Source of the DNA: Candidatus Electronema halotolerans
GTDB lineage: Bacteria > Desulfobacterota > Desulfobulbia > Desulfobulbales > Desulfobulbaceae
NCBI GenBank assembly: GCA_942493095.1
Contig: OW818675.1
Location: 2,040,001-2,072,000, forward strand
Direction: 5' to 3'
Length of the DNA: 32,000 nucleotides
The notes below the pieces were generated by a model. That model saw nothing but the letters and a program-made list of their open reading frames with translations. It was not told the DNA's origin and ran no database searches. A program made the translations under genes and the position numbers. Below are positions 2,418 to 32,000 of this stretch, piece by piece; position 1 is the first letter of the stretch; each line of letters starts with the position of its first letter.

Positions 2418-3226
2418 GCAGACTGCCAGCGGTTGCGGGCCGCTTTTATGAAGCTGATCCGATCCAGCTCCGCAAAACCGTGCTGGAGCTGCTGCCCGCA
2501 GGACGAAAGAAAGCCAAGGCCAAGACAGCGGCCAAGCTCCTGATTGTTCCTCATGCAGGCTATGTCTATTCAGGCTGGGTGGCCGGAAAAGTCTTTGCCA
2601 GCGCGAAAATCCCGGAAACAGTTGTTTTGCTCGGCCCCAATCATCACGGCCTTGGCGCGCCGCTGGCAGTCAGCACAGAGGATTGGGAAACCCCGCTCGG
2701 ACAGGTGCCGCTGGCGACGGAACTTGCCGCCGCTCTTGCCAGCAATTCCATCCTCTTCACTGCGGATGACCTTGCTCATCAGCATGAGCATTCGCTTGAG
2801 GTGCAGCTCCCATTTTTGCAAACACTCCAGCCCAAGCTGCGCATTGTCCCAATCTGCGTCTCCCGGCTGCCCCTGCCGCAGTGTCGGCTGGCAGGAGCAG
2901 AGCTGGCGAGGGCACTGAAAAATTTTGCTCAACCAGTGCTGCTGGTCGCCAGCACCGACATGAGCCACTATGAACCCCGGCATCAGGCCTCGGAAAAGGA
3001 TCAGCTCGCTTTGGGCGACATCCTCAGTCTTGATCCTGCCTCTCTGCACCGCACCGTGCTGATCAAGCGGATCAGCATGTGCGGAGTCATTCCCGTGATC
3101 ATTGCCCTGTATGCGGCCTTGGAGCTGGGCGCGGAACAGGCTGATCTGCTCTGCTGCACAGACTCTGGCTATGTCAGCGGTGATGCCGAACGGGTGGTGA
3201 GTTATGCCGGACTGACAGTGCGTTGA
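2414..3226 (+). CDS. AmmeMemoRadiSam system protein B (Memo-like)
   Basis: ORF 2399..3226. MSRLPAVAGRFYEADP and HEHSLEVQLPFL are typical of the Memo/AmmeMemoRadiSam-B family. The preferred ATG at 2414 overlaps the cysS stop as ATGA. Confidence 0.8.
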   Translation: MSRLPAVAGRFYEADPIQLRKTVLELLPAGRKKAKAKTAAKLLIVPHAGYVYSGWVAGKVFASAKIPETVVLLGPNHHGLGAPLAVSTEDWETPLGQVPLATELAAALASNSILFTADDLAHQHEHSLEVQLPFLQTLQPKLRIVPICVSRLPLPQCRLAGAELARALKNFAQPVLLVASTDMSHYEPRHQASEKDQLALGDILSLDPASLHRTVLIKRISMCGVIPVIIALYAALELGAEQADLLCCTDSGYVSGDAERVVSYAGLTVR

Positions 3227-3379
3227 GCCGCGCCGCAGATTTTTTGCCTGCTTGTAGAATCTCCTTGCTTTGGCCGGGCTGCATCCCTTACAATTTTTTT
3301 ACGAAGTGCATTCCGCACCGGGCGGAAGCCTCTTGACAACGACTTTGAGTAGTCCCCAAGTAAAAAAGGAGCCAAGCCG

Positions 3380-3916
3380 ATGCAGAAAGTGAAAATATTG
3401 TCAGCTACAGCAGCAATGCTTTTCGTACTTACCGCAGGCAGTATTGCTTTTGCCTCAGCACCTTCTGCTTTGAGCAAAGAAATGCCTGAAGCCGCGAAAA
3501 AAGAGTTAGCTGCTGCTACAGAGGCAAAAGCAGCAGCGGCAGAAAAGCCTGCCGAGAAGTCCCTGTATGAGAAGCTCGGCGACAAGGCTATTGCTGATGC
3601 TGTAGAGAAGTTTTATGAGAAAGTGCTGGCTGATGACCGGGTCAACGGCTTTTTCAAAGGCGTTGACATGGACCGCCAGCGCAGAATGCAGACAGCCTTT
3701 CTCACCTATGCTTTTGGCGGCCCCAATGCATACCAAGGCCGGGACCTGCGGGCCGTTCACGCCCATCTTGTTGCCAGAGGGCTGAACGACACCCATTTTG
3801 ACATCATTGTCGAGCATCTGGGCAACACTCTGAAAGAGATAGGCGTTGGGGATGAAGACATCGCTCAGGCTGCCAAGGTTGCCAACAGTGTCCGCAATGA
3901 TGTGCTGAACAAGTAA
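3380..3916 (+). CDS. group I truncated haemoglobin (trHbN-like) with N-terminal signal peptide and Ala/Lys/Glu-rich linker
   Basis: The C-terminal ~120 aa (LYEKLGDKAIADAVEKFYEKVLADDRVNGFF...AVHAHL...HFDIIVEHL) match the 2-on-2 globin fold, with B10 Tyr and a proximal His candidate. The N-terminus MQKVKILSATAAMLFVLTAGSIAFA-SA looks like a Sec signal with an AxA site. AAAGGAG RBS is present. Confidence 0.85.
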   Translation: MQKVKILSATAAMLFVLTAGSIAFASAPSALSKEMPEAAKKELAAATEAKAAAAEKPAEKSLYEKLGDKAIADAVEKFYEKVLADDRVNGFFKGVDMDRQRRMQTAFLTYAFGGPNAYQGRDLRAVHAHLVARGLNDTHFDIIVEHLGNTLKEIGVGDEDIAQAAKVANSVRNDVLNK

Positions 3917-3919
3917 GCG

Positions 3920-5353
3920 TCAGGTTTTCCGCGCTGTGTCAGGCAGGCTTTCCGCAGGGAGGGCCTGCCTTTTTTTCTGCCAGATTTTGGCCGCCCGCAG
4001 CAGCCCTGCCGCCCATTCCGGCGCGCCTGGGGCAAGAATATGCGTGTAAAGGGCAAGGACATTGTTCTTTTGCAAACCATCACGTCTGCCCTGAAAACCG
4101 GTCCCGCGCTCCATGCGCAGAGCCAAGTCTTCCGCTCCGCCGTCCCAGCTTTCAACCACAGAATAGCGGAATTCATGCCCTTTCACCTGCGTTCCAAGCG
4201 GATAAAAGGGATTTTCCCGCTCAACCGTGAACATGGTGTAGCCATGCCCCTGCGGCTTGTGCGACATGGAAAATTTGATCGGAAAAATTCCGGTCAGCGG
4301 ATATTTTACGCCATCAACAACTATGGACTGGCCGAGAAAAATCAGGCCGCCGCATTCAGCGTAAATTGGCAGGCCCTGCTCTGCGGCTTGCCGGACAGAC
4401 TCGCGGAAAGAGGCATTTGCCGCCAAGTGCTGCGCCTGCGTTTCAGGAAAGCCGCCGCCAATGTAGAGCGCATCCAAACCCTCTGGCAGCCGTTCTGCCG
4501 TCAGGGCGTTGATCAGCACCAGTTCCGCCCCGCCCTCGCGCATGGCATCAAGGTTTTCCTGATAATAGAACTGAAAGGCGGCATCGCGGAGCACGGCAAT
4601 GCGCACCTCTGCCGGACTGCTGGGTGATGACGCTGGCAGCGCAAAAGAGCGCGGCTCTGCCAGCCGGGTGATCAGTTCCAGATCAAAATGTTCCTCAGCC
4701 AGCCCGGCTAAATGACTCACTGCTGCGCCGGCATTTGCGTCGCCATATTCCTGATGCGGGATCACGCCAAGATGGCGCATGGGGAAAATATCCTCTGTCA
4801 AACGGGGAATAATTCCAGCCACAGGAATGCCGGTGTCCTGCTCCACCGCCTGCCGGACGATTTGCTCGTGGCGGGGCGAGGCAATCTGATTGAGCAGCAC
4901 CCCGACGATGCGGAGTCGCTTGTCCAGCTCACGGCAGCCGAGCACCATTGCCGCCACAGTCCGGGTGGTCTTGCTGCAATTGACCACTAAGAGCACAGGC
5001 AAATCAAGGAGCAGGGCCAGCTCGGCAGTTGAGAATTCGCCCGCTGCCGTGACCCCGTCATACAGGCCCCGGTTGCCCTCAATCAGGGCAAAGTCCGTTC
5101 CTGCGGCGTGCTGCTGAAACGAGGTGCGGACAGCTGCCGCGCTCATCAAAAAGGGGTCAAGATTCCAGCAGGGCTGCCCGGCAGCGGCAGTCAGCCAGCC
5201 TGCGTCAATGTAATCCGGCCCTTTCTTGAATGGCACAATCCTCTGGCCGCGCTGCCGCAGAGCCGCTGCCAGCGCGACTGAAGCCACTGATTTGCCGGAG
5301 CCGCCGCTCAATCCGGCCATGACAAGGCAGCGGGCAGCAGAACTGTCAGGCAT
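3920..5353 (-). CDS. cbiA: cobyrinate a,c-diamide synthase (CbiA/CobB family amidotransferase)
   Basis: 477-aa ORF. It has an N-terminal P-loop (AGLSGGSGKS), PFKKGPDYID, and a C-terminal glutamine amidotransferase part (YAECGGLIFL). Confidence 0.85.
   Translation of the reverse strand: MPDSSAARCLVMAGLSGGSGKSVASVALAAALRQRGQRIVPFKKGPDYIDAGWLTAAAGQPCWNLDPFLMSAAAVRTSFQQHAAGTDFALIEGNRGLYDGVTAAGEFSTAELALLLDLPVLLVVNCSKTTRTVAAMVLGCRELDKRLRIVGVLLNQIASPRHEQIVRQAVEQDTGIPVAGIIPRLTEDIFPMRHLGVIPHQEYGDANAGAAVSHLAGLAEEHFDLELITRLAEPRSFALPASSPSSPAEVRIAVLRDAAFQFYYQENLDAMREGGAELVLINALTAERLPEGLDALYIGGGFPETQAQHLAANASFRESVRQAAEQGLPIYAECGGLIFLGQSIVVDGVKYPLTGIFPIKFSMSHKPQGHGYTMFTVERENPFYPLGTQVKGHEFRYSVVESWDGGAEDLALRMERGTGFQGRRDGLQKNNVLALYTHILAPGAPEWAAGLLRAAKIWQKKRQALPAESLPDTARKT
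3941..3976 (+). terminator. rho-independent terminator after the globin gene
   Basis: AGGCAGGC (3941-3948) pairs with GCCTGCCT (3963-3970), followed by a T7 run. It lies inside the 3' tail of the convergent cbiA ORF. Confidence 0.55.
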
Positions 5354-5632: not shown

Positions 5633-7441
5633 ATGGCAATTCCCCTTCGCAGCAGCGAGACCACTCAAGGCAGAAGAATGGCCGGAGCACGCGCCCTGTG
5701 GCGGGCCAACGGCATGACCGAAGAACAGATCGGCAAACCCGTTATCGCGGTGGTCAACTCCTTCACCCAGTTTGTGCCCGGCCATGTGCATCTGCACGAG
5801 ATCGGCCAGCAGGTGAAAAAGCAGATTGAGGCCCGAGGCTGCTTTGCCGCCGAGTTCAACACCATCGCCATTGACGACGGCATCGCTATGGGCCACGACG
5901 GTATGCTCTACTCCCTGCCTTCCCGCGAACTGATCGCCGATTCGGTGGAATATATGTGCAATGCCCACAAGGTCGATGCCATGATCTGCATCAGCAACTG
6001 CGATAAAATAACGCCGGGTATGCTGATGGCCGCCATGCGCCTGAACATCCCGGCCATCTTTGTTTCCGGCGGACCGATGGAAGCGGGCCGAATCAAGGGA
6101 CAGGAGCGCGGTTACGATTTGGTGGACGCAATGGTCATGGCGGGCGACCAAGCTGTCTCGGACGAGGAAATCGCCGCTATCGAACAGGCAGCCTGCCCCA
6201 CATGCGGTTCCTGTTCCGGCATGTTCACGGCCAACTCCATGAACTGCCTCAACGAGGCCCTGGGGATGGCCCTGCCCGGCAACGGCACGGTCGTGGCTAC
6301 ACATAAAAATCGTTTAAGTCTGTTTGAACAGGCAGCCGCCCGCATCGTGACTATATGCGAGGCATGGTACGACAAGGAGGACGCTTCCGTTCTGCCCCGC
6401 TCCATTGCCACCAAGGCCGCCTTTAATAATGCAATGGCCCTGGATATCGCTATGGGCGGGTCCACCAACACAGTGCTCCATATCCTGGCGGTGGCTCATG
6501 AGGCCGGGGTGGACTTCACCATGCAGGACATCGACGCTCTCTCCCGCAAGGTGCCGAATCTCTGCAAGGTGGCTCCTTCTGCCTCTTATCATGTGGAGGA
6601 TGTCAACCGGGCAGGAGGTATCCTGAGTATTCTCGGAGAATTGGATCGGGCCGGACTCCTGGACACGGCAGTGAGCAGGGCCGACGGGCTGACCCTGGCC
6701 CAGGCTCTGGAGCAGTTTGATATTGCAAGAGACAGTGCAAACGAAGCAGCCCGCAAGCTCTACGCCAGTGCTCCGGGCAATAAGGGACGCAATCTGGTCA
6801 TGGGTTCCCAGGACACCATGTACGAGACCCTGGATACAGACCGGGAAAAGGGCTGCATCCGCAATGCTGACCATGCCTATTCCAAGGACGGCGGGCTGGC
6901 CGTGCTGTACGGCAATATCGCGGAAAACGGCTGTATTGTGAAAACCGCAGGAGTTGACCCGTCCATCCTCCATTTCCAAGGCAAGGCCAAAGTCTATCAT
7001 TCGCAGGAAGCCTCCTGCGAAGGCATTCTGGCCGGTGAAATCACAGCAGGCGATGTGGTTTTTATCCTCTACGAAGGCCCCAAGGGCGGGCCGGGTATGC
7101 AGGAAATGCTCTATCCCACCTCCTACCTGAAATCCATCCACTTAGGCGCGGAATGCGCCCTGGTCTTTGCCGCATCGAGCATGGATGGTGCTGCGCAATG
7201 TCTTGGGACTGCGCGGCTTTTTATCTTTCCGCTTGATCAAGTCATCAACAACCAGCTTGAGCAGCTCTTCAGTGGATATTTTTTTCTGCGCCGGAGCTGC
7301 CGCACTGACGACTGGTGTCTTGAAACACGGCATCTCTTCTATCGCTGCGGATCGTGTCACAAAAATTTTCCGGCGGCGCAAATGCTGAATGAGCGGATCA
7401 AAGCCTGTATCTTTGGAGATAATGTGAAAAGCTCCTTTTGA
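5633..7441 (+). pseudogene. ilvD: dihydroxy-acid dehydratase, 3'-truncated. Homology ends near 7165; the ORF then reads antisense through the neighbouring gene to 7441.
   Basis: From ATG at 5633 (GAGGAA RBS) it reads [31 protein letters not shown]...[20 protein letters not shown], a clear IlvD match. After ...LGAECALV the conserved TDGRFSGG(T/S) motif and the last ~50-100 residues (depending on whether the long or short IlvD type is the reference) are replaced by unrelated sequence. Confidence 0.8.
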
Positions 7442-7687
7442 ATCAGCCGCTGCCAGCGCGCCGAGGTAATAGGCAATATGGAAATCAAGGGCATTGCTGC
7501 CCGGAGTTTCAAGAATGATGTATTCCCCTCGGCTGCCCAGCCGCTGCATGGCTACGGCCAATTCAACCGGCAGCTTGGTATTATGCGGGCCAAGGAAAAT
7601 CCGCACGTGAAACTGCTCACCATGAAGCAGAGCCAGTGACTGCACCTGCACGTTCTCGTAATCTATGAGAATATAATTGTTTTTCAC
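7142..7687 (-). CDS. NYN/PIN-like (LabA-like) domain protein, probably C-terminally truncated
   Basis: 181-aa ORF with a GTG start. N-terminus [13 protein letters not shown]...[16 protein letters not shown] resembles NYN/PIN-like RNase domains. The last 7 codons and the stop are the antisense of residual ilvD sequence. Confidence 0.55.
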
Positions 7688-14230: not shown

Positions 14231-15278
14231 TATAGCGGTTTCGTATTGAACAGATATCAAACCCAGCAATGACGGAAAAACGATTTGATTGATTTTGACT
14301 TAACCGTTTTCAGAGATATATCATAAGCTTCCATCAGCTCACGCTCTGTTCTCGGCTTCAATTTTCTTATAGTGTTTTTCATTACTGACCAGCAGTATTC
14401 AATAGGGTTCAGTTCAGGACGATAAGGAGGGAGGAAAATGATCTTCGCTCCTGTACTTCTGATCAAAGCGAGAGCTTCTTTGTTTTTATGAGGACTGGCA
14501 TTGTCAAGAACGACTGTCTTGCTGCTGTCAAGATATTTCAAAAGATAATTTTTTATATAGAAATAAAAGACATCTCCTGTCATGGTGCCTTTAAATTTCA
14601 TGCACTTCAATATTTTTCCAAACTTTACAGCTCCTATCATGCTTATTCTTTTCCCTTTACCTGAAGGTCTTTTTGAAAAAGCTCTTGTTCCTTTTCTTGA
14701 TCTTGCAAATTTTCTCGACATGTTCAAACAGCATCCTGTCTCATCAATAAAGATGAAATTCTTTTTGTCAGCCTCGAGCAGGCCTGCAAGGTAATTAACT
14801 GTCTTTGCTATATTTTCCTCTTTATACGCCGCCGGATCGCGGAAAGTTTTTTTTCCGGCTGATTTTCAGTCTGGCGAGAGTTTCGCACAGCGTGGAAGGT
14901 GCTATTTTTAAATTGAATTTCTCGTATAAGCGATCACACATCTCTTCAAGCGTAAGATCGTTCTCGTCATCAATCATGCTGGTCAGAAAAGGCATATGAA
15001 CTTCCTTGATTTTCGGAGGATTTCCGCCTTTATGAGGCTTCGGCTCAAGCGTCCCCTCAGTCTTCCATCTTTTTACAAGACTTTGAACAAATTTATAGGA
15101 AACGTCAAGCAAATCTGCAGTTCTTCTCAATGATTTCTGTTTTTCATAAACAGACAAGACTTTCTTTCTGAAATCAATAGAATAAATCATGGCAGACCTC
15201 CGTGTGTAAAAAAATGGAAAAAACAGACAAGTCAAGTTTAATCTTTTTCTGATAACCATACAACCTGAAACCGCTATA
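14231..15278 (-). mobile_element. IS630-family insertion sequence (~1.05 kb) with TA target duplication
   Basis: Terminal inverted repeats are TATAGCGGTTTC (14231-14242) and its complement GAAACCGCTATA (15267-15278). TA at both ends is consistent with IS630/Tc1-type TA duplication. The element is low in GC and encodes a DDE transposase. Confidence 0.85.
14257..15190 (-). CDS. IS630-family transposase, in two frames joined at an A8 tract
   Basis: orfA (15190..14822) reads MIYSIDFRKKVLSVYEKQKSLRRTADLL... (HTH). orfB is open from 14859 and reads ...KKTFRDPAAYKEE...NFIFIDETGCCLNMSRKFARSRKG...VVLDNASPHK...LPPYRPELNPIEYCW (DDE). The A8 run is at 14847-14854. Joining the frames needs a +1 (or -2) shift. 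Confidence 0.85.
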
Positions 15279-15436
15279 GTATCGTCTTTTCTCGGCATGA
15301 AGTCCTGAGTCTCGATTTCTCCGTTCTCTTTATGAACAGAAACGGAATATCCTTCCTGCATCATTTTGTGATGCTTGCCGCGCACTCCGCCTGTGAAATC
15401 GTATTCTGAGCGCATCTCTTTTCCTGTTTTTTTCAT
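15279..15436 (-). pseudogene. small antitoxin-like gene (EYDF-x-GGVRGK motif) interrupted near its 3' end by the IS630
   Basis: MKKTGKEMRSEYDFTGGVRGKHHKMMQEGYSVSVHKENGEIETQDFMPRKDDT then enters the IS. Removing the IS and one TA restores ...DDTIIL-stop (TAA at 14220-14222). Confidence 0.5.
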
Positions 15437-15506
15437 GTCAGCAGCCCTCATAGAATTGCCGTTCTGACCTGTTGCCTTGCGGCAGCTTATCGCCTGGGCC
15501 GCAGCC

Positions 15507-15630: not shown

Positions 15631-16059
15631 TCAATCTGTCGGAGGATGCAACCCAATGATAAACAACGCTTTACGAATATTAACGAGTCCTGGCCGATTC
15701 AACTTTAATGCCTGAACCGTTGCACGTCCAACCGCCGTCAGCCCGACAATGCGGCTATAATCGTGATTCCAGCGAAAGTGATCCTGCCATTGTTGTGTTC
15801 TGGGATTATACAGCGGAACGACTTTTCCGTCCGCCGGGTCGGGAGAGCGTATTTTGTTATACTTGTGCGCGTTGCATCCCGGACAGGCTAATGCCAGATT
15901 TTCCAATGCTGTTTCGCCATTCAGGCTGACCGGCATGATATGCTCCACGGAAAAGGACTGGGTTGCAAAATCAGCCCTGCTCTGGCAATACTCGCAACGC
16001 CCTTGGGCACGCTCGGCAACAGCCTGTTTTTCCGGGACGGTCACATAGCGTCTAACCAT
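15631..16059 (-). CDS. HNH endonuclease
   Basis: 142 aa with CEYCQ...EHIMPVSLNGETALENLALACPGCNAHK (HNH with Zn-ribbon cysteines). Confidence 0.85.
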   Translation of the reverse strand: MVRRYVTVPEKQAVAERAQGRCEYCQSRADFATQSFSVEHIMPVSLNGETALENLALACPGCNAHKYNKIRSPDPADGKVVPLYNPRTQQWQDHFRWNHDYSRIVGLTAVGRATVQALKLNRPGLVNIRKALFIIGLHPPTD

Positions 16060-16453
16060 AAGCGGGCGGATGAATATTTAAGGTGCTCATCAATGCTGTC
16101 ACGGATACATTACGCAATTGAGCCAGCCTGATTAATGCCTGCGCACGTTCTGCGTCTGCCAGTTCAATGTGTTCAATCAGCACCAGCAGTTCCTGCTGTT
16201 CCTCATGGGTCAGGGTTTCAGCATGACGCTTTTCTGTCAGTTCGTTATAACGCCGTTGCGTGTCCGGCGGCAAACTCTGATTGATTTTCTCCAGCATTTC
16301 AGCTTCCTGCTTGGAAAGACTCGGCGCGATACGTCTGGCACGCAAGGTCAGCACCCAAGAAACGAACTGTTCCAGATCGTTCGTTTCCAGTTGCGCGACA
16401 CCTTTGAGCAAGTTGTTGAGAGTGACTTGAGAACGCATTTCAGTTGTCGGCAT
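16052..16453 (-). CDS. hypothetical helical protein translationally coupled to the HNH gene
   Basis: 133-aa ORF with an AGGAG RBS. Its stop overlaps the HNH start by 8 nt. It is charged and helical (…EQQELLVLIEHIELADAERAQALIRLAQLRN…). I recognise no family. Confidence 0.6.
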   Translation of the reverse strand: MPTTEMRSQVTLNNLLKGVAQLETNDLEQFVSWVLTLRARRIAPSLSKQEAEMLEKINQSLPPDTQRRYNELTEKRHAETLTHEEQQELLVLIEHIELADAERAQALIRLAQLRNVSVTALMSTLNIHPPAYG

Positions 16454-16650
16454 TTTTTACTCCTTGGTAAAGCAAAACTCAGGATGTTACCGTCCTGAAG
16501 AGGCGGAAGAGAAACAGCCCGGAGGAATACTCCGGGCCGTTCTGATGCTGAGTATATCATATCACCGGTTAGGCCGTTTGTCGGCATAATCTCTTTATGG
16601 CCCCGGCCTGCATGGCAAAGATGCACGGCTGTAGCGCAAAAAAAACAAAA

Positions 16651-16776
16651 TCACTGTCCGCCGCGCACCAACCGAACCGCGTGGACGTAGTTGCGGGAGT
16701 GGGCGTTGGAACCGCCGGAGTGGAAATCGACGTACCACGCGTAGACCGAGTAGCCAGCATACGGCGACCCGGACCA
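16651..16776 (-). repeat. candidate DGR variable region (VR-A) with IMH-like 3' block
   Basis: 126 nt collinear with 17238..17363, with 101/126 identical. Differences are confined to 19 codons, mostly NNC. See finding 1. Confidence 0.65.
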
Positions 16777-17172
16777 GACAACAGATGATGGCGTATTGGG
16801 AAAACGGTTCAGGTTGATCGCAGGATTAGAGCATTGTTCCTCAACAAGAGAAATAAGCTCATTGATATTTGGTAATCTCCAATCTGTATGGCCTGCAAAG
16901 CCGCCGCTGTTATTGACAACACTTGACTGTTGAAGGGCCTCCTGCCATGTAAAAGTATCTGGTGTGCCGCTCCCGCAATCATCGCCGGAAAAACCTTCCA
17001 CGCATTTTTTCCATGTCAGGCTGGTCTTGCTGTCCGTGACTGTGCCGTCGCCGTTATCAACAAGCTGGCTGTCCGGTGTGGAAGCGGGAATAGAATCCGG
17101 TCTACAGTTTTGGGCTGCTTGGACGGTCATTGCGGAAAACATGCAGCAGAGCATCAAAAAAAACGTTCGCAT
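16651..17172 (-). CDS. secreted DUF1566 (Lcl C-terminal / C-type-lectin-like) domain protein
   Basis: MRTFFLMLCCMFSAMTVQA-AQ is a signal peptide. DWRLPNINELISLV and FPNT..WSGSPYA...AVRLVRGGQ are DUF1566 hallmarks. Confidence 0.85.
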   Translation of the reverse strand: MRTFFLMLCCMFSAMTVQAAQNCRPDSIPASTPDSQLVDNGDGTVTDSKTSLTWKKCVEGFSGDDCGSGTPDTFTWQEALQQSSVVNNSGGFAGHTDWRLPNINELISLVEEQCSNPAINLNRFPNTPSSVVWSGSPYAGYSVYAWYVDFHSGGSNAHSRNYVHAVRLVRGGQ

Positions 17173-17237
17173 AATCTGAATCCTGTTCGAGAGGGAACAC
17201 AAACCGGTGGTGCGTCACACAAGACAAAAAAACAAAA

Positions 17238-17363
17238 TCACTGTCCGCCGCGCACCAACCGGACCGCGTAGTCGTAGTGGCGGAGGTAGGCGCCGGAATC
17301 GCCGTTGTAGAAATAGACGCTCCACGCGTCGTCCGAGCCGTTCGCATAGGGCGAACCGGACCA
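17238..17363 (-). repeat. candidate DGR variable region (VR-B) with IMH-like 3' block
   Basis: Same cassette as 16651..16776. Identity continues 14 nt (TTTTGTTTTTTT(T)G) past the stop codon. Confidence 0.65.
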
Positions 17364-20300
17364 AAACTCAGAACTAACTGTATTAGGAAAATAGTTGATG
17401 TCTATTGCCGGGTTATAGGAACCATGATGAACAATACTGTTCAGCTCCTTGCGCGTCGGCATCCGCCAATCCGAAGCCCCGCACCAGCCAGCAGCATTCA
17501 CCCGGTTCACATACGCCTGCGTGTTGCAGAACTTGGAAGGATTGCTGCTGTCATACTCATAACAGGTATTGCCTCCATAATCGGCAGAACCATCGGCTCC
17601 ACCATTGGTCGTTGGATCAGTATTGTACCACGTATAGGTATCATCTTTATCATGCAGCCCGCCGTCATCAGTCTTCACCTCCCAAATCAGGCCAGTGACA
17701 TTGTCTTTCACGCAGGCCCAAGGCGTGGTTGCATAATCCGCGCTTTGATCATCTAACGGCACGCCGTTGCTGTCTAACTTAGTGTAGCTAAATCCGGCAT
17801 GGCCGTCACTGTCGTCATTATTGGTTGCATCACGGCCATGCGAGCAGTCCTGTTCTGCAACCACGTTGTCGTCGTCCGGCGTACTTGAAGCAATGCAGGC
17901 CGTGTTGTTCCCGGACTTATAATTGCCGCTCCACGTTATGCCAGTGTCGTTTAATGGTGTCGTCGCAGAAGCAGGCGGCGGAGTTCCTGCAATATGCGCA
18001 GAAACCTCATTGGAGAACGGCCCAAGCCGACTGTTGTTATTGCTGTAAGCCTGCATTTTGAATACATAATCAGAACCCGGAGTCAGGCCGGAGATAACAG
18101 CGTGACGATCATAGATGCTGCGTGTTTCCAGCAATTGCTCGCTTGCATCCGCTGCTGAAGTATCTAAAGCGAAAATCTGAAAACCCATCCAAGGTTCTGA
18201 AGTTTCCGGCATGAACGTCCAATCCAAACTTGCCTGTCCAGGTGTGGAACCGTCAACAGAATCCAGCAGCGTTGGTGTGTCTGTTGGTTCAAGATCATTG
18301 ACATCAATATCAACCGTTTTATAGGTGTTGCCAAGCTCTTCATCAGGCAAGTTCTGTCCAACGGATGCCTCATTATAGAAAAAAGGCTTGCGCAAATATC
18401 TGCCAACTGGCAGATCAGCAGTTGCAACAGACAGTTGAACAAGTTCGTCTTCACCCGGAGCCAACACACCGGAAGAAGGCGTGATGCTGATTGCCGCTGA
18501 TCCGTTGGTCGTGTTCCAGTGCAGGTCTTCATCGCCAGTGTTGGAAATCGTGAGATTGCTTGCCAATCCGCTTGCATCACCAACATCAATGGTGGAGAAT
18601 ATGCCGTCGCCTTCAACAAGAAGGAATGAACCTTTTGTGTATTCAGGACAGCTATTCTCAAAGGTCCATTTTTTTATGGGCCATTCAGCTGTATAAACAG
18701 CAAAATTTAACTTTTTCAGTTTATCCAGATGGAGTAATTTTCCGATTTTCGTACCAGCACCTATATCTATATTTTCTATATCCCAGTTAAATTCAGCCTC
18801 AATACCTGCCAAAATTTGCGCCATCCTTTCAACACAACCTTCGGCAGAAAAAGATTCGCTTCCTTCAATTTTCACATAGGCTTTCAAAGGGATTTCAGGC
18901 CCAGTAAGGTTGTAAATTTTCATCCCTGATTCAATCAGCAGGCCACCTCTGATAGAGGCATTAAGCTCTGTTGTTATTGTAGAAAGAAGTGGGGAGACAG
19001 ATTGGGAGAAACTTTTATGTCGAGAGAAACCTGTATTTTTATTGTAGAGCATCCCCCTTTGCATCTTCTCTTGCACCGAAATTCCAAACGTGCTTTTGAT
19101 TTCTATGCTCCCATCATCAATAAAAAAATAAATATCTACACTTGGAGTTATCCATACTGGGACAAAACCGATCATGAAATCGATAGATTTAAGAGGAATT
19201 GTACCTATTTTTATCTTTTTCTTGTTGAAAAATGTCAACTTTTGACTTGCAGTTAATTCTACCTTCTGTTCTGAGTCTGCTTTAACAATGAACTTAAACC
19301 CTTGCAAACCATCAAACAGTTTGTAATCAACTCCAACGTCAATAGAAATGTCAAGAGTTATTTCCCCTGTCGCAGATAGGGTTCCTCCATGACCATCATC
19401 ATATAACGTAACCTTTAATGATTGCGATATAGCCCTGCCATCTGCTGATGTACTGGAAACAGCAGGTTCTTCACCGAGCTTAATGACAAAATGAGTATTA
19501 TCTGGTTGATCAGAAACTTGTAAACTGGTGCCCTCCAGTCCGCTGAAAGCTGTTGGTGAAATGGTTGCGGGCAGCCCAGCAGCAGCCGGTTCTGTATATC
19601 CTTCCAAATCACCATTGGTCATCTGTTTAAAGATATGTCCTGTACCCTGCGCAATAACTTCATCAAGAGCTGCATCAGCAGTGTCAAACTGATACGAGGT
19701 TGAGGAAATCTTTTTTATTCCAGTAATCTTGCGCAGGAAACCGCCGCCGTCATCACCAACAATAAAATCACCGACATTGGCTGCTGCCAGCTCGTCAATC
19801 AGGTCATTCATATCATCTGACAGCCGCACGGAAACCGTATTTGTTCCAACGGTATTGCTGGTCGAACTGAGATTATGGACAACGCCGTTCAGAATAGTCT
19901 CTGTCCTGCCGAAATTGGCAACCACAGACTGACTTCTGTTCAGTGCCACCGTGCATTGCGTCAAGTCAGCGGAAACATTTTCACAACCTGACCAGCCTAA
20001 AATTTGCGCATCAGCACCTGCTGTCGCTGTAAACGTGATCGTGCCGCTTTCATCCTCAGATACGAAGATATGATCTTCATACACTGGATCTGCAAGAGTG
20101 GAATCAACTGAAAGGCTGTGCGGTGCTCCTGATGCAGCCTTACCCGGACCAAATACAGAAAGAGTTACTTGAACAGTATGATAACGGGAATCAGGAACAG
20201 GGAAACGGGTCATGAGCCAAGAAAATGTCTCATCCAATTGAGCAAGCATGGCATCTGTCTCACCTGCTCGCAGGGAAGCAAGAATAGTTTGCCCGACATC

Positions 20301-20972
20301 ATTGGCAGTAGAAAGCCAGTCATAATCAAAGGCGAGCTTATCTCTGTCTGCTGCTTTTTCAGGATCAAAGGCCAGAATATCATTCCAGTCAATTGTGCCG
20401 TTGCCATCGATATCGCTTTTGATGAGATAGCGGGCAAGATCAGCAAGACGTATTTCTACTTCCTCGGCAGACACAGCAGAAATCAAATTCTCAACATATC
20501 GCCAGCCAATTTCTGTCAACGGCGTAATTTTCAAATGCTTGGTGCGCCAATCTGAAGCTCGTGCCAAGGCATGAAGCGTTCCCAGATTCTGAGTCGATGA
20601 AGCATCAGCAATTCCGTTGCTGTCGGCATCAATATCTTTGCCGCCGCTTGCTTCGGCCACAATCCATTCATTATCCGCCAGTCCCGCCAGAGCAAGATCA
20701 AAAGTTCCTGCGGCCAAGAGGCTCCTGTTGCTCTGCACAGCTTCCTTTGGCCCCTCAACAGGACTTGCCAACTCCTCAATTGTAAACGCTTTAATCGAAG
20801 TCCCTGACAGCGGGCCAACAAGAAGAGCTTGATGAGAAAGCGGCTCAGGTGAACTGCTGTGTTTCCCCAGCAGCGGTGCAATCATCAGCAAAAGATTACC
20901 GGAATAAGCGGTGCTGGCGGCAACGCAGGCAGAACTGACCAGAATAATGACAAAAAGACGGAAATGTTTCAT
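17238..20972 (-). CDS. large secreted multidomain protein ending in a DUF1566/C-type-lectin-like domain
   Basis: 1244 aa, starting with signal peptide MKHFRLFVIILVSSACVAAS. Domains by eye are Ca-binding-like loops (DIDADSNGIAD, DIDGNGTIDWND), an InlB-B-repeat-like segment (ILGWSGCENVSADLTQCTVALNRSQSVVANF), a central unknown beta-rich module, a choice-of-anchor/ASPM-like segment (LTISNTGDEDLHW...), an FN3-like segment and a C-terminal DUF1566 (DWRMPTRKELNSIV...AVRLVRGGQ). Confidence 0.85.
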   Translation of the reverse strand: MKHFRLFVIILVSSACVAASTAYSGNLLLMIAPLLGKHSSSPEPLSHQALLVGPLSGTSIKAFTIEELASPVEGPKEAVQSNRSLLAAGTFDLALAGLADNEWIVAEASGGKDIDADSNGIADASSTQNLGTLHALARASDWRTKHLKITPLTEIGWRYVENLISAVSAEEVEIRLADLARYLIKSDIDGNGTIDWNDILAFDPEKAADRDKLAFDYDWLSTANDVGQTILASLRAGETDAMLAQLDETFSWLMTRFPVPDSRYHTVQVTLSVFGPGKAASGAPHSLSVDSTLADPVYEDHIFVSEDESGTITFTATAGADAQILGWSGCENVSADLTQCTVALNRSQSVVANFGRTETILNGVVHNLSSTSNTVGTNTVSVRLSDDMNDLIDELAAANVGDFIVGDDGGGFLRKITGIKKISSTSYQFDTADAALDEVIAQGTGHIFKQMTNGDLEGYTEPAAAGLPATISPTAFSGLEGTSLQVSDQPDNTHFVIKLGEEPAVSSTSADGRAISQSLKVTLYDDGHGGTLSATGEITLDISIDVGVDYKLFDGLQGFKFIVKADSEQKVELTASQKLTFFNKKKIKIGTIPLKSIDFMIGFVPVWITPSVDIYFFIDDGSIEIKSTFGISVQEKMQRGMLYNKNTGFSRHKSFSQSVSPLLSTITTELNASIRGGLLIESGMKIYNLTGPEIPLKAYVKIEGSESFSAEGCVERMAQILAGIEAEFNWDIENIDIGAGTKIGKLLHLDKLKKLNFAVYTAEWPIKKWTFENSCPEYTKGSFLLVEGDGIFSTIDVGDASGLASNLTISNTGDEDLHWNTTNGSAAISITPSSGVLAPGEDELVQLSVATADLPVGRYLRKPFFYNEASVGQNLPDEELGNTYKTVDIDVNDLEPTDTPTLLDSVDGSTPGQASLDWTFMPETSEPWMGFQIFALDTSAADASEQLLETRSIYDRHAVISGLTPGSDYVFKMQAYSNNNSRLGPFSNEVSAHIAGTPPPASATTPLNDTGITWSGNYKSGNNTACIASSTPDDDNVVAEQDCSHGRDATNNDDSDGHAGFSYTKLDSNGVPLDDQSADYATTPWACVKDNVTGLIWEVKTDDGGLHDKDDTYTWYNTDPTTNGGADGSADYGGNTCYEYDSSNPSKFCNTQAYVNRVNAAGWCGASDWRMPTRKELNSIVHHGSYNPAIDINYFPNTVSSEFWSGSPYANGSDDAWSVYFYNGDSGAYLRHYDYAVRLVRGGQ

Positions 20973-27491: not shown

Positions 27492-27857
27492 ATGCCACGC
27501 GTCACACGCGGGTTTAAAGCCCGCCGGAGAAGAAATAAGGTCCTGCAATTGGCCAAAGGCTATCGGGGCGGCAGAAGCCGTCTCTTCCGCACTGCTGCGG
27601 AAGCGGTTGACCGCGCCCTTTGCTATGCCTATCGCGACCGCCGTACCAATAAGCGTAATTTCCGTGCGTTGTGGATCACCCGCATCAGCGCGGCTGCCAA
27701 GCTGAACGGCACCAGTTACAACAAGCTGATGCACGGTTTCAAGCAGGCCGGGATTGAGCTGGACCGCAAGGTGCTGTCCAATCTGGCCATTGTTGATCCT
27801 GCCGCCTTCAGCGCGCTGGTGAAAAAATCTCTCGGACAGCAGGAAGCGACTGCCTGA
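27492..27857 (+). CDS. rplT: 50S ribosomal protein L20
   Basis: [35 protein letters not shown]... Confidence 0.95.
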
Positions 27858-28864
27858 TGGAAGAAACGCTGCGCAAGCTGCGGACGGAAGCGGAAGCGGC
27901 TCTGGGCGCGGTCAGCAAGCTGGCCGGGCTGGAGGAAGTCCGGGTCAAATATCTGGGCCGCAAGGGGCTGCTGGCCGAGGCCATGAAGCAGCTCGGCAAA
28001 GCTGCCCCGGCAGACCGGCCCCGCTTGGGCCAAGTTGCCAATGCGGTCAAGCAGGACGTGGAGAGCCTTTTTCAGGCTAAAAAAGAGGCTCTGGAGGCTG
28101 GCAGCCAGCCGGTCAAGCAGATGCTTGATCTCAGCCTGCCTGGCCGCTTTGTTCCTGTTGGCAAGCTCCATCCTGTCACCCAGGTGATGGAGGAAATCTG
28201 CGCTGTTTTTGAAGGCATGGGTTTTGCTGTGGCTGAAGGCCCGGATGTGGAGACCGATTATTACAATTTCGAGGCTCTCAACATCCCGGCCCATCATCCG
28301 GCCAGAGACATGCACGACACCTTTTATGTGTCTGATTCTCTCCTCCTGCGCACCCACACCTCGACCATGCAGGCGCGGATCATGGAAAAGCAGGAGCCGC
28401 CTCTGCGCTATATCGCGCCGGGCAAGGTCTATCGCTGCGATTCTGACATCACCCACACCCCGATGTTTCATCAGGTCGAGGGCTTTCTCGTTGACCGCCA
28501 AGTTTCTTTTGCTGATCTGAAAGGAGTCTTGGGACTCTTCTCCCGCCGTATTTTTCAGGGTGATCTGCCCCTGCGCTTCCGACCCAGCTTTTTTCCCTTC
28601 ACTGAACCCAGCGCAGAGGTTGACATTGCCTGCGTGATCTGCAAAGGCGCAGGCTGCCGGGTCTGCAAGCAGACTGGCTGGATTGAAATTCTTGGCGCGG
28701 GCATGATTGACCCGGAAGTCATGAACATGGTCGGTTATGACCCGGAGCAGTTCTCCGGCTTTGCCTTTGGTCTTGGCGTGGAACGCATCGCCATGCTCAA
28801 GTACGGCATTGATGACATCCGCATGTATTACGAGAACGATCTGCGGTTTCTCAGGCAGTTCTGA
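27857..28864 (+). CDS. pheS: phenylalanine--tRNA ligase alpha subunit
   Basis: 335 aa with class II motifs (…[11 protein letters not shown]…, …[16 protein letters not shown]…, …[14 protein letters not shown]…). The start overlaps the rplT stop (TGATG). Confidence 0.95.
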
Positions 28865-28867
28865 CAA

Positions 28868-29101
28868 ATGGCTGTTTTGATTGAGCTGCCGGAACACCAA
28901 GCAGCTTTGCTCAAACAATACTGCCATGAGGCGCAAATCAGCGAGGCAGAGGCAGTCGGACAAGCCTTGACCCAGTTTTTGGCGCGGATAGTGCAGAAAC
29001 CCCGCCGTATTTTGCGTGAACACCCGGCTTTTGGGCTTTGGCGGGACAAGCAGCAGGACGGACTGGCTTACCAACGGCATCTGCGTGATGAACGGCCTTG
29101 A
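28868..29101 (+). CDS. ribbon-helix-helix VapB-type antitoxin
   Basis: 77 aa, starting 4 nt after the pheS stop. The C-terminal ...HPAFGLWRDKQQDGLAYQRHLRDE is the motif I associate with RHH antitoxins paired with PIN toxins. Confidence 0.7.
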   Translation: MAVLIELPEHQAALLKQYCHEAQISEAEAVGQALTQFLARIVQKPRRILREHPAFGLWRDKQQDGLAYQRHLRDERP

Positions 29102-29388: not shown

Positions 29389-29482
29389 ATGAAATTAACC
29401 CTGACTTGGCTTGGCCAATATATTTTTCTTGATGGCCTGTCCGCAGCGCAGCGCGCTGACCATGCTCGGCTTGGAGGTGGAG
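29389..29482 (+). pseudogene. diverged duplicate of the pheT 5' end (frameshifted by an 8-nt gap)
   Basis: ATGAAATTAACCCTGACTTGGCTTGGCCAATATATTTTTCTTGATGGCCTGTCCGCAGC... aligns to 30062-30163 at about 84/93 identities plus an 8-nt gap. It reads MKLTLTWLGQYIFLDGLSAAQ, then goes out of frame and stops at 29512. Confidence 0.8.
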
Positions 29483-29530
29483 ACAGTTCGGACTGCAAAA
29501 ATTCAGTTGATTAAATAATTACGGCATGTC

Positions 29531-29818
29531 ATGCGGCTGAAGTTTGAATGGGATGAAAATAAAAATGCGGTCAATATTCGCAAGCACAAGATTGACTTCG
29601 AGGACATTCCAGAACTTTTTCAAAAGCCGATGCTTATTGATTATGATGGCAGGCAGAATTACGGTGAAGAACGTTGGCTTGGAATAGGGTTGCTGCATAA
29701 CGTGGCAGTAGCTGTGGTATTTACAGAACGCGGTGAAAGCACAATTCGAATAATTTCAGCACGAAAAGCAACAAAAGAAGAGCGGCGGCAATATGACGAA
29801 AGAATCTTCCAAAACTGA
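29531..29818 (+). CDS. brnT: BrnT-family (DUF497) ribonuclease toxin
   Basis: FEWDENKNAVNIRKHKIDFED...EERW...IRIISARKATKEERRQY. Confidence 0.85.
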   Translation: MRLKFEWDENKNAVNIRKHKIDFEDIPELFQKPMLIDYDGRQNYGEERWLGIGLLHNVAVAVVFTERGESTIRIISARKATKEERRQYDERIFQN

Positions 29819-30065
29819 CTGGGCAGCTCTGGAAAACATGACAGATGCGGAAATAGATTTTTCTGATATTTCACGTCTGCCAAAGGCATTTTTTGAACGA
29901 GCTGAACTATGGCAGCCGAAAAATAAAGTGAATGTCACAGTGGCAATAGACGAGGACCTGCTGCAATGGTTTAAAGCAGCAAGCGATGACTGGGAAGGAA
30001 GAATGCAGGCCGCATTACGTCTGTATGTTGAAACACATAAGGCATTCAGTTCCACACGCCCATGA
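29793..30065 (+). CDS. brnA: BrnA-family (DUF4415-like) antitoxin
   Basis: TDWAALENMTDAEIDFSDI...KVNVTVAIDEDLLQWFKA...MQAALRLYV. It overlaps brnT by 26 nt, and its TGA overlaps the pheT ATG (ATGA at 30062-30065). Confidence 0.8.
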   Translation: MTKESSKTDWAALENMTDAEIDFSDISRLPKAFFERAELWQPKNKVNVTVAIDEDLLQWFKAASDDWEGRMQAALRLYVETHKAFSSTRP

Positions 30066-32000
30066 AATTCACCCTGATTTGGCTTGGCCAATATATTTCT
30101 CTTAACGGCCTGTCCGCAGCACAGCTTGCCGACCGCCTGACCATGCTCGGCTTGGAGGTGGAAGCGGTGCAGAAGCTGTACGCCGGGCTGGAGGCGGTCA
30201 AGACCGCAAAAGTTCTGTCCGTGCAGAAGCATCCTAATGCTGACCGGCTGACCTTGTGCGACGTGGAGGTCGGCGGGCAAATCCTGCCTGTTGTCTGCGG
30301 CGCGCCCAATGTCCGAGCTGGATTAGTGACCGCCATTGCCCTGCCCGGCGCAAAGCTGCCTGACGGCCTGACGATCAAAAAAGCCAAGGTGCGCGGCCAA
30401 GTTTCCGAGGGAATGCTTTGCTCGTGGAAAGAACTGGGCATCAGCGAGGCCAGCTCCGGCATTGTTGAGCTGGATGCCGCCTTGGCATCCGGCCAACCCC
30501 TGCGCGAGGCTCTCGGCCTGCACGACACGATGGTCGAAGTTGATCTCACGCCGAATCGGGCCGACTGCGCCAGTGTGCTGGGCATTGCCCGCGAAGTGAG
30601 CGGAGTTACAGGCCAGCAGGTCTGCCGTCCTGTAACAACCTTGCCCGATTTGTCTCAACCTGCTGAATTCACGGTTGCTATTGACGAGCCGCAGCTCTGT
30701 CCTCGCTATGCGGCCCGCAGACTGACTGACGCGACGATCAAGCCGTCGCCGTGGTGGCTCCAGCGGCTGCTCTTGGCAGTTGGAATGCGTCCGATCAACA
30801 ACATTGTTGACATCACCAACTTTGTCATGCTGGAGTATGGCCAGCCGCTTCATGCCTTTGATTATGCGAAGATTGCAGGCAAAGGCATTGTGGTTCGGCA
30901 GCCCAAGGCGGATGAGAGCAAGTTCACCACCTTGGACGGCAGCGAGCGCAGTCTTGAGCCGGACATGCTCCTGATTTGTGATCAGGAAAAGCCGGTGGCA
31001 ATGGCCGGGGTCATGGGCGGTCTCAATTCCGAGGTGACAGATGGAACCACGGATATTCTCCTCGAATCGGCCTGCTTTGATCCGGTTTCCATCCGCCGCA
31101 CCGCCCGCCGGCTCAATCTCGCCTCAGAGGCATCCTACCGCTTTGAGCGCGGTGTCAACCCGGACGGCGTGACCGAGGCTCTGGAACGTGCTGCGCAGCT
31201 TATCTGTGAGCTGGCTGGAGCGCAGGCTGCGGACGGCGTTGATTTGTATCCCGGCAAAAAAAAGCTGCTTCAGCTTGAACTGCGGGTGCAGCGGGTCAAC
31301 AACTTGCTCGGCACTGATCTCAGCAGTGGGCAGGTTGCCGCCTGTCTGCGCGGGATTGAATTTGCTGTGGAAGAAGACGGCGAATTGCTGCGCGTGACTG
31401 TGCCAGCCTTCCGCATTGACATTGAACGCGAAGCTGATTTGATCGAGGAAGTGGCCCGCTTGGTCGGCTACAACGAGATTCCGGTCACGCTGCCCAAGAT
31501 GGCAATGGACTGCCCGCAGCCTGCACCGCTCCGCCAACTCCGCAAAAAGATTGCGGCGGCAATGACCGGCCTCGGCTTTTACGAGGCAGTCAATTACTCC
31601 TTTGTCAGCAAAAAGCATAACGACTGGCTCAACTTGGCTGCTGCTGATTCCCGCAGGCAGCAGGTGGAGCTGCTCAATCCTCTCAGTGAAGATCAGGCCG
31701 TGCTGCGCACCATGCTCCTGTCCGGCCTCTTGGACAATGTCCGCCGCAACATCAGCTTTCAGCAGACCGATGTCCGCCTTTTTGAGGTGGGCAAAGTCTT
31801 CGCCTTCACCGCTCCGGGCCAGCAGCCTGTTGAGCGGCACCAGCTCTGCGCCGTGATCAGCGGCAGCCGTTATCCAGAGGCCAGCCCGCTCTATTTTTCC
31901 AGCCAAGAGAGTGATATCTTCGACCTGAAAGGTGCAATGCAGGCTTTGCTTCGGGAACTGCGGCTGGAAGCAGCAGTCAGTTTCGCAGCTTCAGAAGGTC
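30062..32000 (+). CDS. pheT: phenylalanine--tRNA ligase beta subunit (5' part; runs off the right edge)
   Basis: I translated the frame by eye from 30062 to ~31500 with no stop and assume it stays open to the window end. It is not in the ORF track (no in-window stop). It reads MKFTLIWLGQYISLNGLSAAQLADRLTMLGLEVEAV...KHPNADRLTLCDVEVGG...VRGQVSEGMLCS...FRIDIEREADLIEEVARLVGYNEIP. Confidence 0.9.
   Translation, partial: MKFTLIWLGQYISLNGLSAAQLADRLTMLGLEVEAVQKLYAGLEAVKTAKVLSVQKHPNADRLTLCDVEVGGQILPVVCGAPNVRAGLVTAIALPGAKLPDGLTIKKAKVRGQVSEGMLCSWKELGISEASSGIVELDAALASGQPLREALGLHDTMVEVDLTPNRADCASVLGIAREVSGVTGQQVCRPVTTLPDLSQPAEFTVAIDEPQLCPRYAARRLTDATIKPSPWWLQRLLLAVGMRPINNIVDITNFVMLEYGQPLHAFDYAKIAGKGIVVRQPKADESKFTTLDGSERSLEPDMLLICDQEKPVAMAGVMGGLNSEVTDGTTDILLESACFDPVSIRRTARRLNLASEASYRFERGVNPDGVTEALERAAQLICELAGAQAADGVDLYPGKKKLLQLELRVQRVNNLLGTDLSSGQVAACLRGIEFAVEEDGELLRVTVPAFRIDIEREADLIEEVARLVGYNEIPVTLPKMAMDCPQPAPLRQLRKKIAAAMTGLGFYEAVNYSFVSKKHNDWLNLAAADSRRQQVELLNPLSEDQAVLRTMLLSGLLDNVRRNISFQQTDVRLFEVGKVFAFTAPGQQPVERHQLCAVISGSRYPEASPLYFSSQESDIFDLKGAMQALLRELRLEAAVSFAASEG

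Follow-up and report, generated by a model that had tools for sequence, protein, structure and literature searches.

Two tandem genes in the chromosome of Candidatus Electronema halotolerans, a cable bacterium of the Desulfobulbaceae, end in two versions of one cassette. The locus raises the question of what wrote these versions, and of whether the machinery that did so is still at hand. The window analysed here is a stretch of 32,000 nt (contig OW818675.1, positions 2,040,001 to 2,072,000 of the forward strand). An earlier note, made from its letters alone, had read the cassettes as variable regions (VRs) of a diversity-generating retroelement (DGR), a targeted-hypermutation system in which the copying of a template repeat (TR) by a reverse transcriptase (RT), with the protein Avd, would introduce changes at adenines.

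Two tandem target genes and their common 3' end

The two gene ends (VR-A in the small and VR-B in the large target gene, Table 1) have the sites, sequence and counts first described: they are of equal length and free of indels when aligned, with 25 nt differences spread over 19 codons. By first, second and third codon position these differences number 12, 9 and 4. Third positions are identical in 38 of the 42 codons of the cassette and in 17 of the 43 codons of the 129 nt directly upstream, where overall identity is about 55%; the sharp 5' boundary that had been placed at TGGTCC is real. The cassette is the sole long direct repeat of its kind that a repeat finder detects in the window, and its 21-nt core occurs there exactly twice, with 0 occurrences expected by chance. 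The identical run at the 3' end exists, but it covers the last 21 coding nucleotides and not 24 as counted earlier, because GTT and GTC differ at the 22nd. Identity does continue beyond the stop codon, although for the 12 nt of TTTTGTTTTTTT instead of the 14 nt first given; beyond these, copy A contains one additional T. It was also correctly seen that neither copy is the template.

Table 1. Coordinates of the target genes, cassettes, flanks and intergenic scar in the window, and of the template repeat in a relative
Feature	Position	Strand	Description	Basis
Small target gene	16651..17172	(-)	173 aa, single Lcl_C domain	Pfam Lcl_C, E=7e-36
Large target gene	17238..20972	(-)	1244 aa, C-terminal Lcl_C	Pfam, E=5e-31
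VR-A	16651..16776	(-)	126 nt including stop codon, 3' end of small target gene; scaffold type 1 (CCG..GCT)	
VR-B	17238..17363	(-)	126 nt including stop codon, 3' end of large target gene; scaffold type 2 (CCC..GCG)	
IMH-like T-rich 3' flank of VR-A	16638..16650	(-)	TTTTGTTTTTTTT	
IMH-like T-rich 3' flank of VR-B	17226..17237	(-)	TTTTGTTTTTTT	
Intergenic scar	17173..17237	(-)	65 nt, where relatives carry a ~2.1-kb avd-TR-RT core	
TR of contig L017	2352-2474 (contig L017)			Metagenome scan with a TR-specific pattern

Both products contain an Lcl_C domain (PF07603, formerly DUF1566), to which the Pfam match is strong and spans the VR. The small target begins with a hydrophobic stretch that resembles a signal peptide (judged by eye, no predictor run) and matches, at 100% identity, a Candidatus Electronema halotolerans protein with the name "Adhesin". 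Its closest homologue is only 88% identical outside the VR, and with the small target that follows the RT in a relative (metagenome contig L017, described below) it shares 66% identity. Evidence on its fold is weak because the AlphaFold model has low confidence (pLDDT 56): the best PDB match, the C-terminal domain of Legionella Lcl (8q4e), is weak (E=0.01, TM 0.31-0.38), and the C-type-lectin-like entries that come next are weak as well. A sequence search of the PDB with the small target gave no match.

The large target also has weak Pfam matches to Ig-like and fn3 domains. Only its last ~240 aa (nt 17238-17957) are common to the large targets of L017 and of four further loci (L020, L001, L024 and L026), at 61-80% identity. 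The N-terminal regions of the large targets in L001, L017, L020, L023, L024 and L026 are unrelated to one another, and total lengths range from 436 to 1267 aa. A common end joined to unrelated N-termini suggests that the 3' module with its VR behaves like a modular cassette, transferable and exchangeable between proteins. The target proteins themselves would be secreted binding proteins.

The remainder of the window is chromosomal housekeeping sequence, with cysS, an ilvD/edd-type dehydratase gene, ligA, lpxI, lpxA, a fabA-like gene, cbiD, an M48 peptidase gene, a tadA-like deaminase gene, purB and thrS. An HNH gene and an IS630 copy lie downstream of the small target gene. The start of the 142-aa HNH endonuclease gene is overlapped by a 133-aa ORF without a family match (16052-16453), and both form a two-gene module (15631-16453, minus strand) between the DGR targets and IS630. 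This ORF was considered as a candidate Avd and rejected, as it has no Pfam or NCBIfam (bAvd) match and the Avd of L017 gave no tblastn match in the window. The small target gene is followed after 1.2 kb by the IS630-type transposase (14257-15451, minus strand), which is split into an HTH ORF (14822-15451) and a DDE_3 ORF (14257-14727).

Two further observations concern the opposite end of the window. At 29389-30173 (plus strand), genes for a BrnT toxin (29531-29818) and a BrnA antitoxin (29793-30065) stand directly upstream of pheT (start 30062), and upstream of the pair ~105 nt repeat the 5' end of pheT (29389-29492, 86-88% identical); it looks as if a toxin-antitoxin module was inserted there, duplicating the pheT start. 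A 454-aa ORF without a family match (27716-29080, minus strand) runs antisense to the likely rplT (27492-27857) and pheS (27857-28864, plus strand), two ORFs named from operon context only, and is probably not a gene.

The template and the complete element of relatives

Metagenomes were scanned for a TR-specific pattern that combines AAC at the codons of highest variability with the 3' scaffold, and three contigs matched. On L017, a 4.7-kb contig of a relative, the order is a 509-aa Lcl_C target, bAvd (1825-2208), TR, RT (2491-3936) and a 173-aa Lcl_C target. The RT carries the motifs LPIGNLTSQ and YVDD, and the Avd matches the Pfam bAvd family and also, below its cut-off, the NCBIfam DGR Avd model. 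In the two VRs of this element, 19 and 17 adenines of the TR are changed, and 0 of 87 non-A sites. The template probe that the earlier note had deduced from the cassettes has found its counterpart here, in a real TR that is close to it and stands beside a bAvd gene and an RT.

The full gene order recurs on L021, a 48-kb chromosomal contig, the VR1 of which has 21 adenine mismatches and 0 non-adenine mismatches. On L020 (Ca. Electrothrix sp. AW5), a target, bAvd and RT follow in the same order before the contig ends. On L020, where bAvd and RT look intact, the neighbouring TR (~7400-7480) lacks roughly 60 internal nt that are present in the TR of L017, and this core may be defective too. The RT of L018, accompanied by a related TR, is only 49% identical to that of L017. 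Between the TRs of L017, L021 (9710-9832) and L018 (about 528-646), whose hosts are distant, 17-20 non-adenines differ but only 1 adenine does; in these three the adenines are the conserved part of the template.

When the window VRs are set against the L017 TR (123 positions compared, 35 of them adenines), the mismatches of VR-A fall at adenines in 19-20 cases and at non-adenines in 2 (20/22; p=1e-11), and those of VR-B in 17-18 and 6 (18/24; p=1e-7). The 6 non-adenine states of VR-B all recur in other VRs or TRs. Between the two cassettes, 20 of the 25 differences lie on adenines of this TR (Fisher p=1.6e-9); the 5 others comprise GGC/AAC at codon 8 and four third-position changes that are synonymous. 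The adenine mutagenesis by a DGR that the earlier note suspected is borne out against the template of a relative whose own VRs differ at adenines only. Because of this adenine-specific pattern, the two cassettes are almost certainly VRs written by a DGR of the DUF1566/Lcl_C (CLec2) target class.

The accompanying idea of a single template with A at every variable site fails for GGG/GGT, CCG/CCC, GCT/GCG and GTT/GTC, which are not adenine-derived. An adenine origin of these four third-position differences was rejected because A is found at the sites in 0 of 15 related VRs and because their states are linked: CCG..GCT and CCC..GCG form perfectly linked scaffold types among the 15 VRs. TRs with CCC AAT GCC AAC are present in L021 and L018. 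Given the linkage of these non-adenine differences, A (type 1) and B (type 2) would have been last written from slightly different TRs. Private drift was also rejected as a source of the scaffold differences, since neither VR has a scaffold change unique to itself; for the same reason, little evolutionary time has probably passed since they were last written.

The small target has more than 1,400 homologues, mostly from cable bacteria (Electrothrix, Electronema). A scan for the 23-nt 3' scaffold of VRs and TRs, in one genome per species, gave 16 loci, most of them in cable bacteria, a few in Betaproteobacteria and two apparently by chance; no RT was found within 8 kb of these 16 loci. In 15 cable-bacterial cassettes, freely varying NNC/NNT codons are set in a near-invariant nucleotide scaffold with a T-rich 3' UTR. 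Variable codons of this form, among which no stop codon is possible, amid an invariant scaffold are the arrangement of a VR. The majority base has a frequency of 0.56 at the columns where the TR has A and of 0.94 at the non-A columns, and third-position conservation is 0.91 in the cassette and 0.65 upstream.

At the protein level, 115 homologues of about 173 aa have 18 hypervariable positions between residues 138 and 164, with a mean entropy of 3.15 bits, against 0.94 bits in the rest of the mature protein. These positions are set between invariant residues (e.g. W146, R167) and the nearly invariant G153 and R160. Amino acids that no NNY codon specifies (K, E, Q, M, W) account for 3.1% of residues at the hypervariable sites and for 13.7% at other variable sites (p=1e-35). 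Among the Betaproteobacteria, this 23-nt 3' scaffold recurs at the loci L002, L007, L011 and L015 (Rhodoferax, Ca. Aalborgicola) in 2-4 tandem cassettes, which have no stop codon after GGACAG; L002 also includes an avd-like stretch.

The T-rich flank that follows the stop codon is kept in most of the 15 cable-bacterial VRs, across genera, and is absent from the TRs, which have GTGGCAGGAGGG at that point. CGGTTGGTGCGCGGCGGA is common to VR and TR, after which the VRs continue with CAGTGATTTTGTTTTTTT and the TR with AAGTGGCAGGAGGG, so that their divergence begins just before the flank. The window VRs likewise have a GC-rich 3' end followed by a VR-specific flank unlike the TR, as far as sequence can tell. 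An IMH-like 3' block had been recognised from the two copies alone, and its conservation across cable-bacterial VRs agrees with that reading; the T-rich flank would act as the IMH.

The empty site and the fate of the variable regions

The large and small targets are separated by 65 nt in the window, as against a ~2.1-kb avd-TR-RT core in L017 and likewise a core in L020 and L021. Of this scar, 15 nt (17223-17237) match L017 up to the avd start codon and 23 nt (17173-17195) match the last codons of the L017 RT ORF, which are the 5' UTR of the small gene; the 27 nt between them (17196-17222) are unrelated filler. Neither tblastn nor blastn detects RT or Avd remnants in the window. No TR or RT came to light there, whether by repeat finding and mismatch search, by blastn (two probes) and tblastn (the RT and Avd of L017), or by Pfam analysis of 29 ORFs: only the two VRs emerged, and RVT_1 has no match among the 20 main ORFs. 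The earlier statement that the window contains no RT, Avd or TR stands after Pfam, tblastn, blastn and repeat searches. Its description of the genes as remote or orphan targets is right in that no core is present in the window, and can be made more specific: they are the flanking pair of a DGR minus its avd-TR-RT core.

Core-less tandem pairs are also found in L001 (Electronema TJ), L013, L023 (Electronema VV), and L024 and L026 (Electronema V4), the last two with more divergent scaffolds. In L013, a related tandem locus, 76 nt of the RT 3' end are left (E=1.5e-9), and in L023 only ATGCAAG remains of avd, followed by IS110. On account of such remnants, loss of the core from between the gene pair is favoured, and its insertion between an ancestral pair, with no deletion at this locus, is the less favoured course of events.

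Among the best 120 matches to the L017 RT listed, all of at least 432 bits, neither the source contig (3,199,950 bp) nor any of five further large contigs of cable bacteria (3.2-5.1 Mb) is represented; the RT of Electrothrix AW5, 89% identical to that of L017, is one of the 120. The same contigs are missing from all 116 matches to the L017 Avd, in which the cable-bacterial entries (AW5, LOE2, AR3, AX5) are all on short MAG contigs, with 70-93% Avd identity in the MAGs that have a core. A scan of viral contigs gave 0 matches, and thus no sign of a phage-borne copy. An intact cognate core in the source genome is unlikely, this absence being drawn from protein homology lists only, which are blind to a lone TR and to an RT that is pseudogenised, fragmented or below ~50% identity.

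In characterised DGRs (PMC5758913), the RT, together with Avd, copies TR RNA into cDNA and misincorporates opposite template adenines. The cDNA would then replace the VR, with the GC-rich end and the T-rich 3' flank peculiar to the VR as guides, as the sequence pattern suggests. Both window VRs were almost certainly written in this way, apparently from two slightly different versions of the TR, and the avd-TR-RT core between the two genes would then have been lost, leaving the 65-nt scar and freezing the VRs. The window VRs are probably orphans frozen in this way, left by a DGR that has since gone, the orphaned state being made the likelier one by the lack of an RT or Avd match from the source contig. 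The pristine scaffolds and the IMH-like flanks fit ongoing activity as well as recent loss.

These last features are what might be expected if the VRs were remote targets of an active DGR, one or two cores elsewhere in the chromosome still diversifying both in trans: the two scaffolds are without private mutations and the conserved IMH-like flank is kept. Non-phage DGRs are on record with remote targets over 100 kb away from the RT, and avd-TR-brt acts in trans (PMC5758913); moreover, the absence of a core from the source genome comes from protein lists and not from a genome scan. However, no protein of the source contig stands among the listed RT matches of at least 432 bits or in any of the 116 Avd matches, although cable-bacterial MAGs that do have a core turn up with 70-93% Avd and 89% RT identity. 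The site at which relatives keep the core is empty here, and A and B would require two different TRs. Remote targeting is for these reasons unlikely, and orphaning after core loss is favoured over it.

There is a slim chance that the VRs are still being rewritten without a chromosomal core, the avd-TR-RT part being a strain-variable or mobile unit that acts in trans on "landing pads" made of the VR scaffold and the T-rich IMH. Such a unit would explain the pristine scaffolds of large, near-complete cable-bacterial assemblies for which the protein database gave neither an RT nor an Avd homologue, and also the shortness of every contig that bears the core. About as slim is the chance that this lineage obtained its VR-bearing 3' modules through recombination with a relative that carries a DGR, and that they underwent no diversification in it. 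The large targets do share only their last ~240 aa, joined to unrelated N-terminal parts, and A and B have different scaffold types, each shared with other species; but the junction retains both edges of the core, as fits a resident element minus its core, and core-less tandem pairs recur at other loci of sister Electronema genomes.

That ordinary paralogues had their 3' ends homogenised by gene conversion and then came under diversifying selection, with no retroelement involved, agrees with a tandem pair of higher 3' identity and identical downstream bases, but is highly improbable in view of the adenine pattern, the NNY codons and the recurrent scaffold, since conversion would homogenise the variable codons too and leaves unexplained the 20 of 25 differences on the adenines of a relative's TR, the C or T at position 3 of variable codons, and the recurrence of the same scaffold and 3' UTR across genera beside bAvd and RT genes.

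Orphaning by loss of the core, which is the preferred reading, would make this locus a clean natural example of DGR decay, with the core lost, both flanking targets intact and two receptor-like variants frozen.

Comparison with known systems

The DGR of Bordetella phage BPP-1 (Mtd, Avd, TR, Brt) is the paradigm of adenine-specific mutagenic retrohoming. At the 3' end of its VR a GC-rich stretch is followed by an IMH that differs from the TR, and bAvd serves as an accessory protein. All of these parts are present in the L017 relative. By contrast with BPP-1, which is phage-borne and has a single target, the cable-bacterial element is chromosomal and stands among housekeeping genes.

TvpA, of the Treponema denticola DGR, belongs to the FGE-sulfatase/CLec1 class. 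The T. denticola system resembles the present one in that several VR-bearing genes occur per genome, away from the RT, and its targets are recognised by their identity to the TR except at adenines (PMC5758913). The difference is that in T. denticola an active core is kept in the same genome, whereas none was detected here.

The Legionella pneumophila DGR target LdtA is a member of category "d", in which CLec2 VRs overlap DUF1566/DUF823/Fib_succ_major (Wu et al. 2018, PMC5758913). About half of this category are short DUF1566-only proteins and half have adhesin-type extensions (PMC5758913), and the 173-aa and 1244-aa pair of the window matches these two halves. As in LdtA, a DUF1566/Lcl_C domain has the VR at its C-terminus, the protein looks secreted, and diversification proceeds via AAC/AAT codons of the TR. 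Unlike the Legionella system, the targets described here stand without RT, Avd and TR, in a cable bacterium of the Desulfobulbaceae, and the element of cable-bacterial relatives has two targets, one on either side of avd-TR-RT.

As a set of DUF1566/CLec2 DGR targets, this kind of system is already known; its host group is without a prior report in the literature searched, where no mention of DGRs in cable bacteria or Desulfobulbaceae was found. One may speculate that the target family matters for adhesion or for the recognition of other cells or phages. Set beside the Legionella, Treponema and Bordetella phage systems, the locus and its relatives extend DGR-driven diversification of surface proteins to the multicellular, electron-conducting filaments of cable bacteria.
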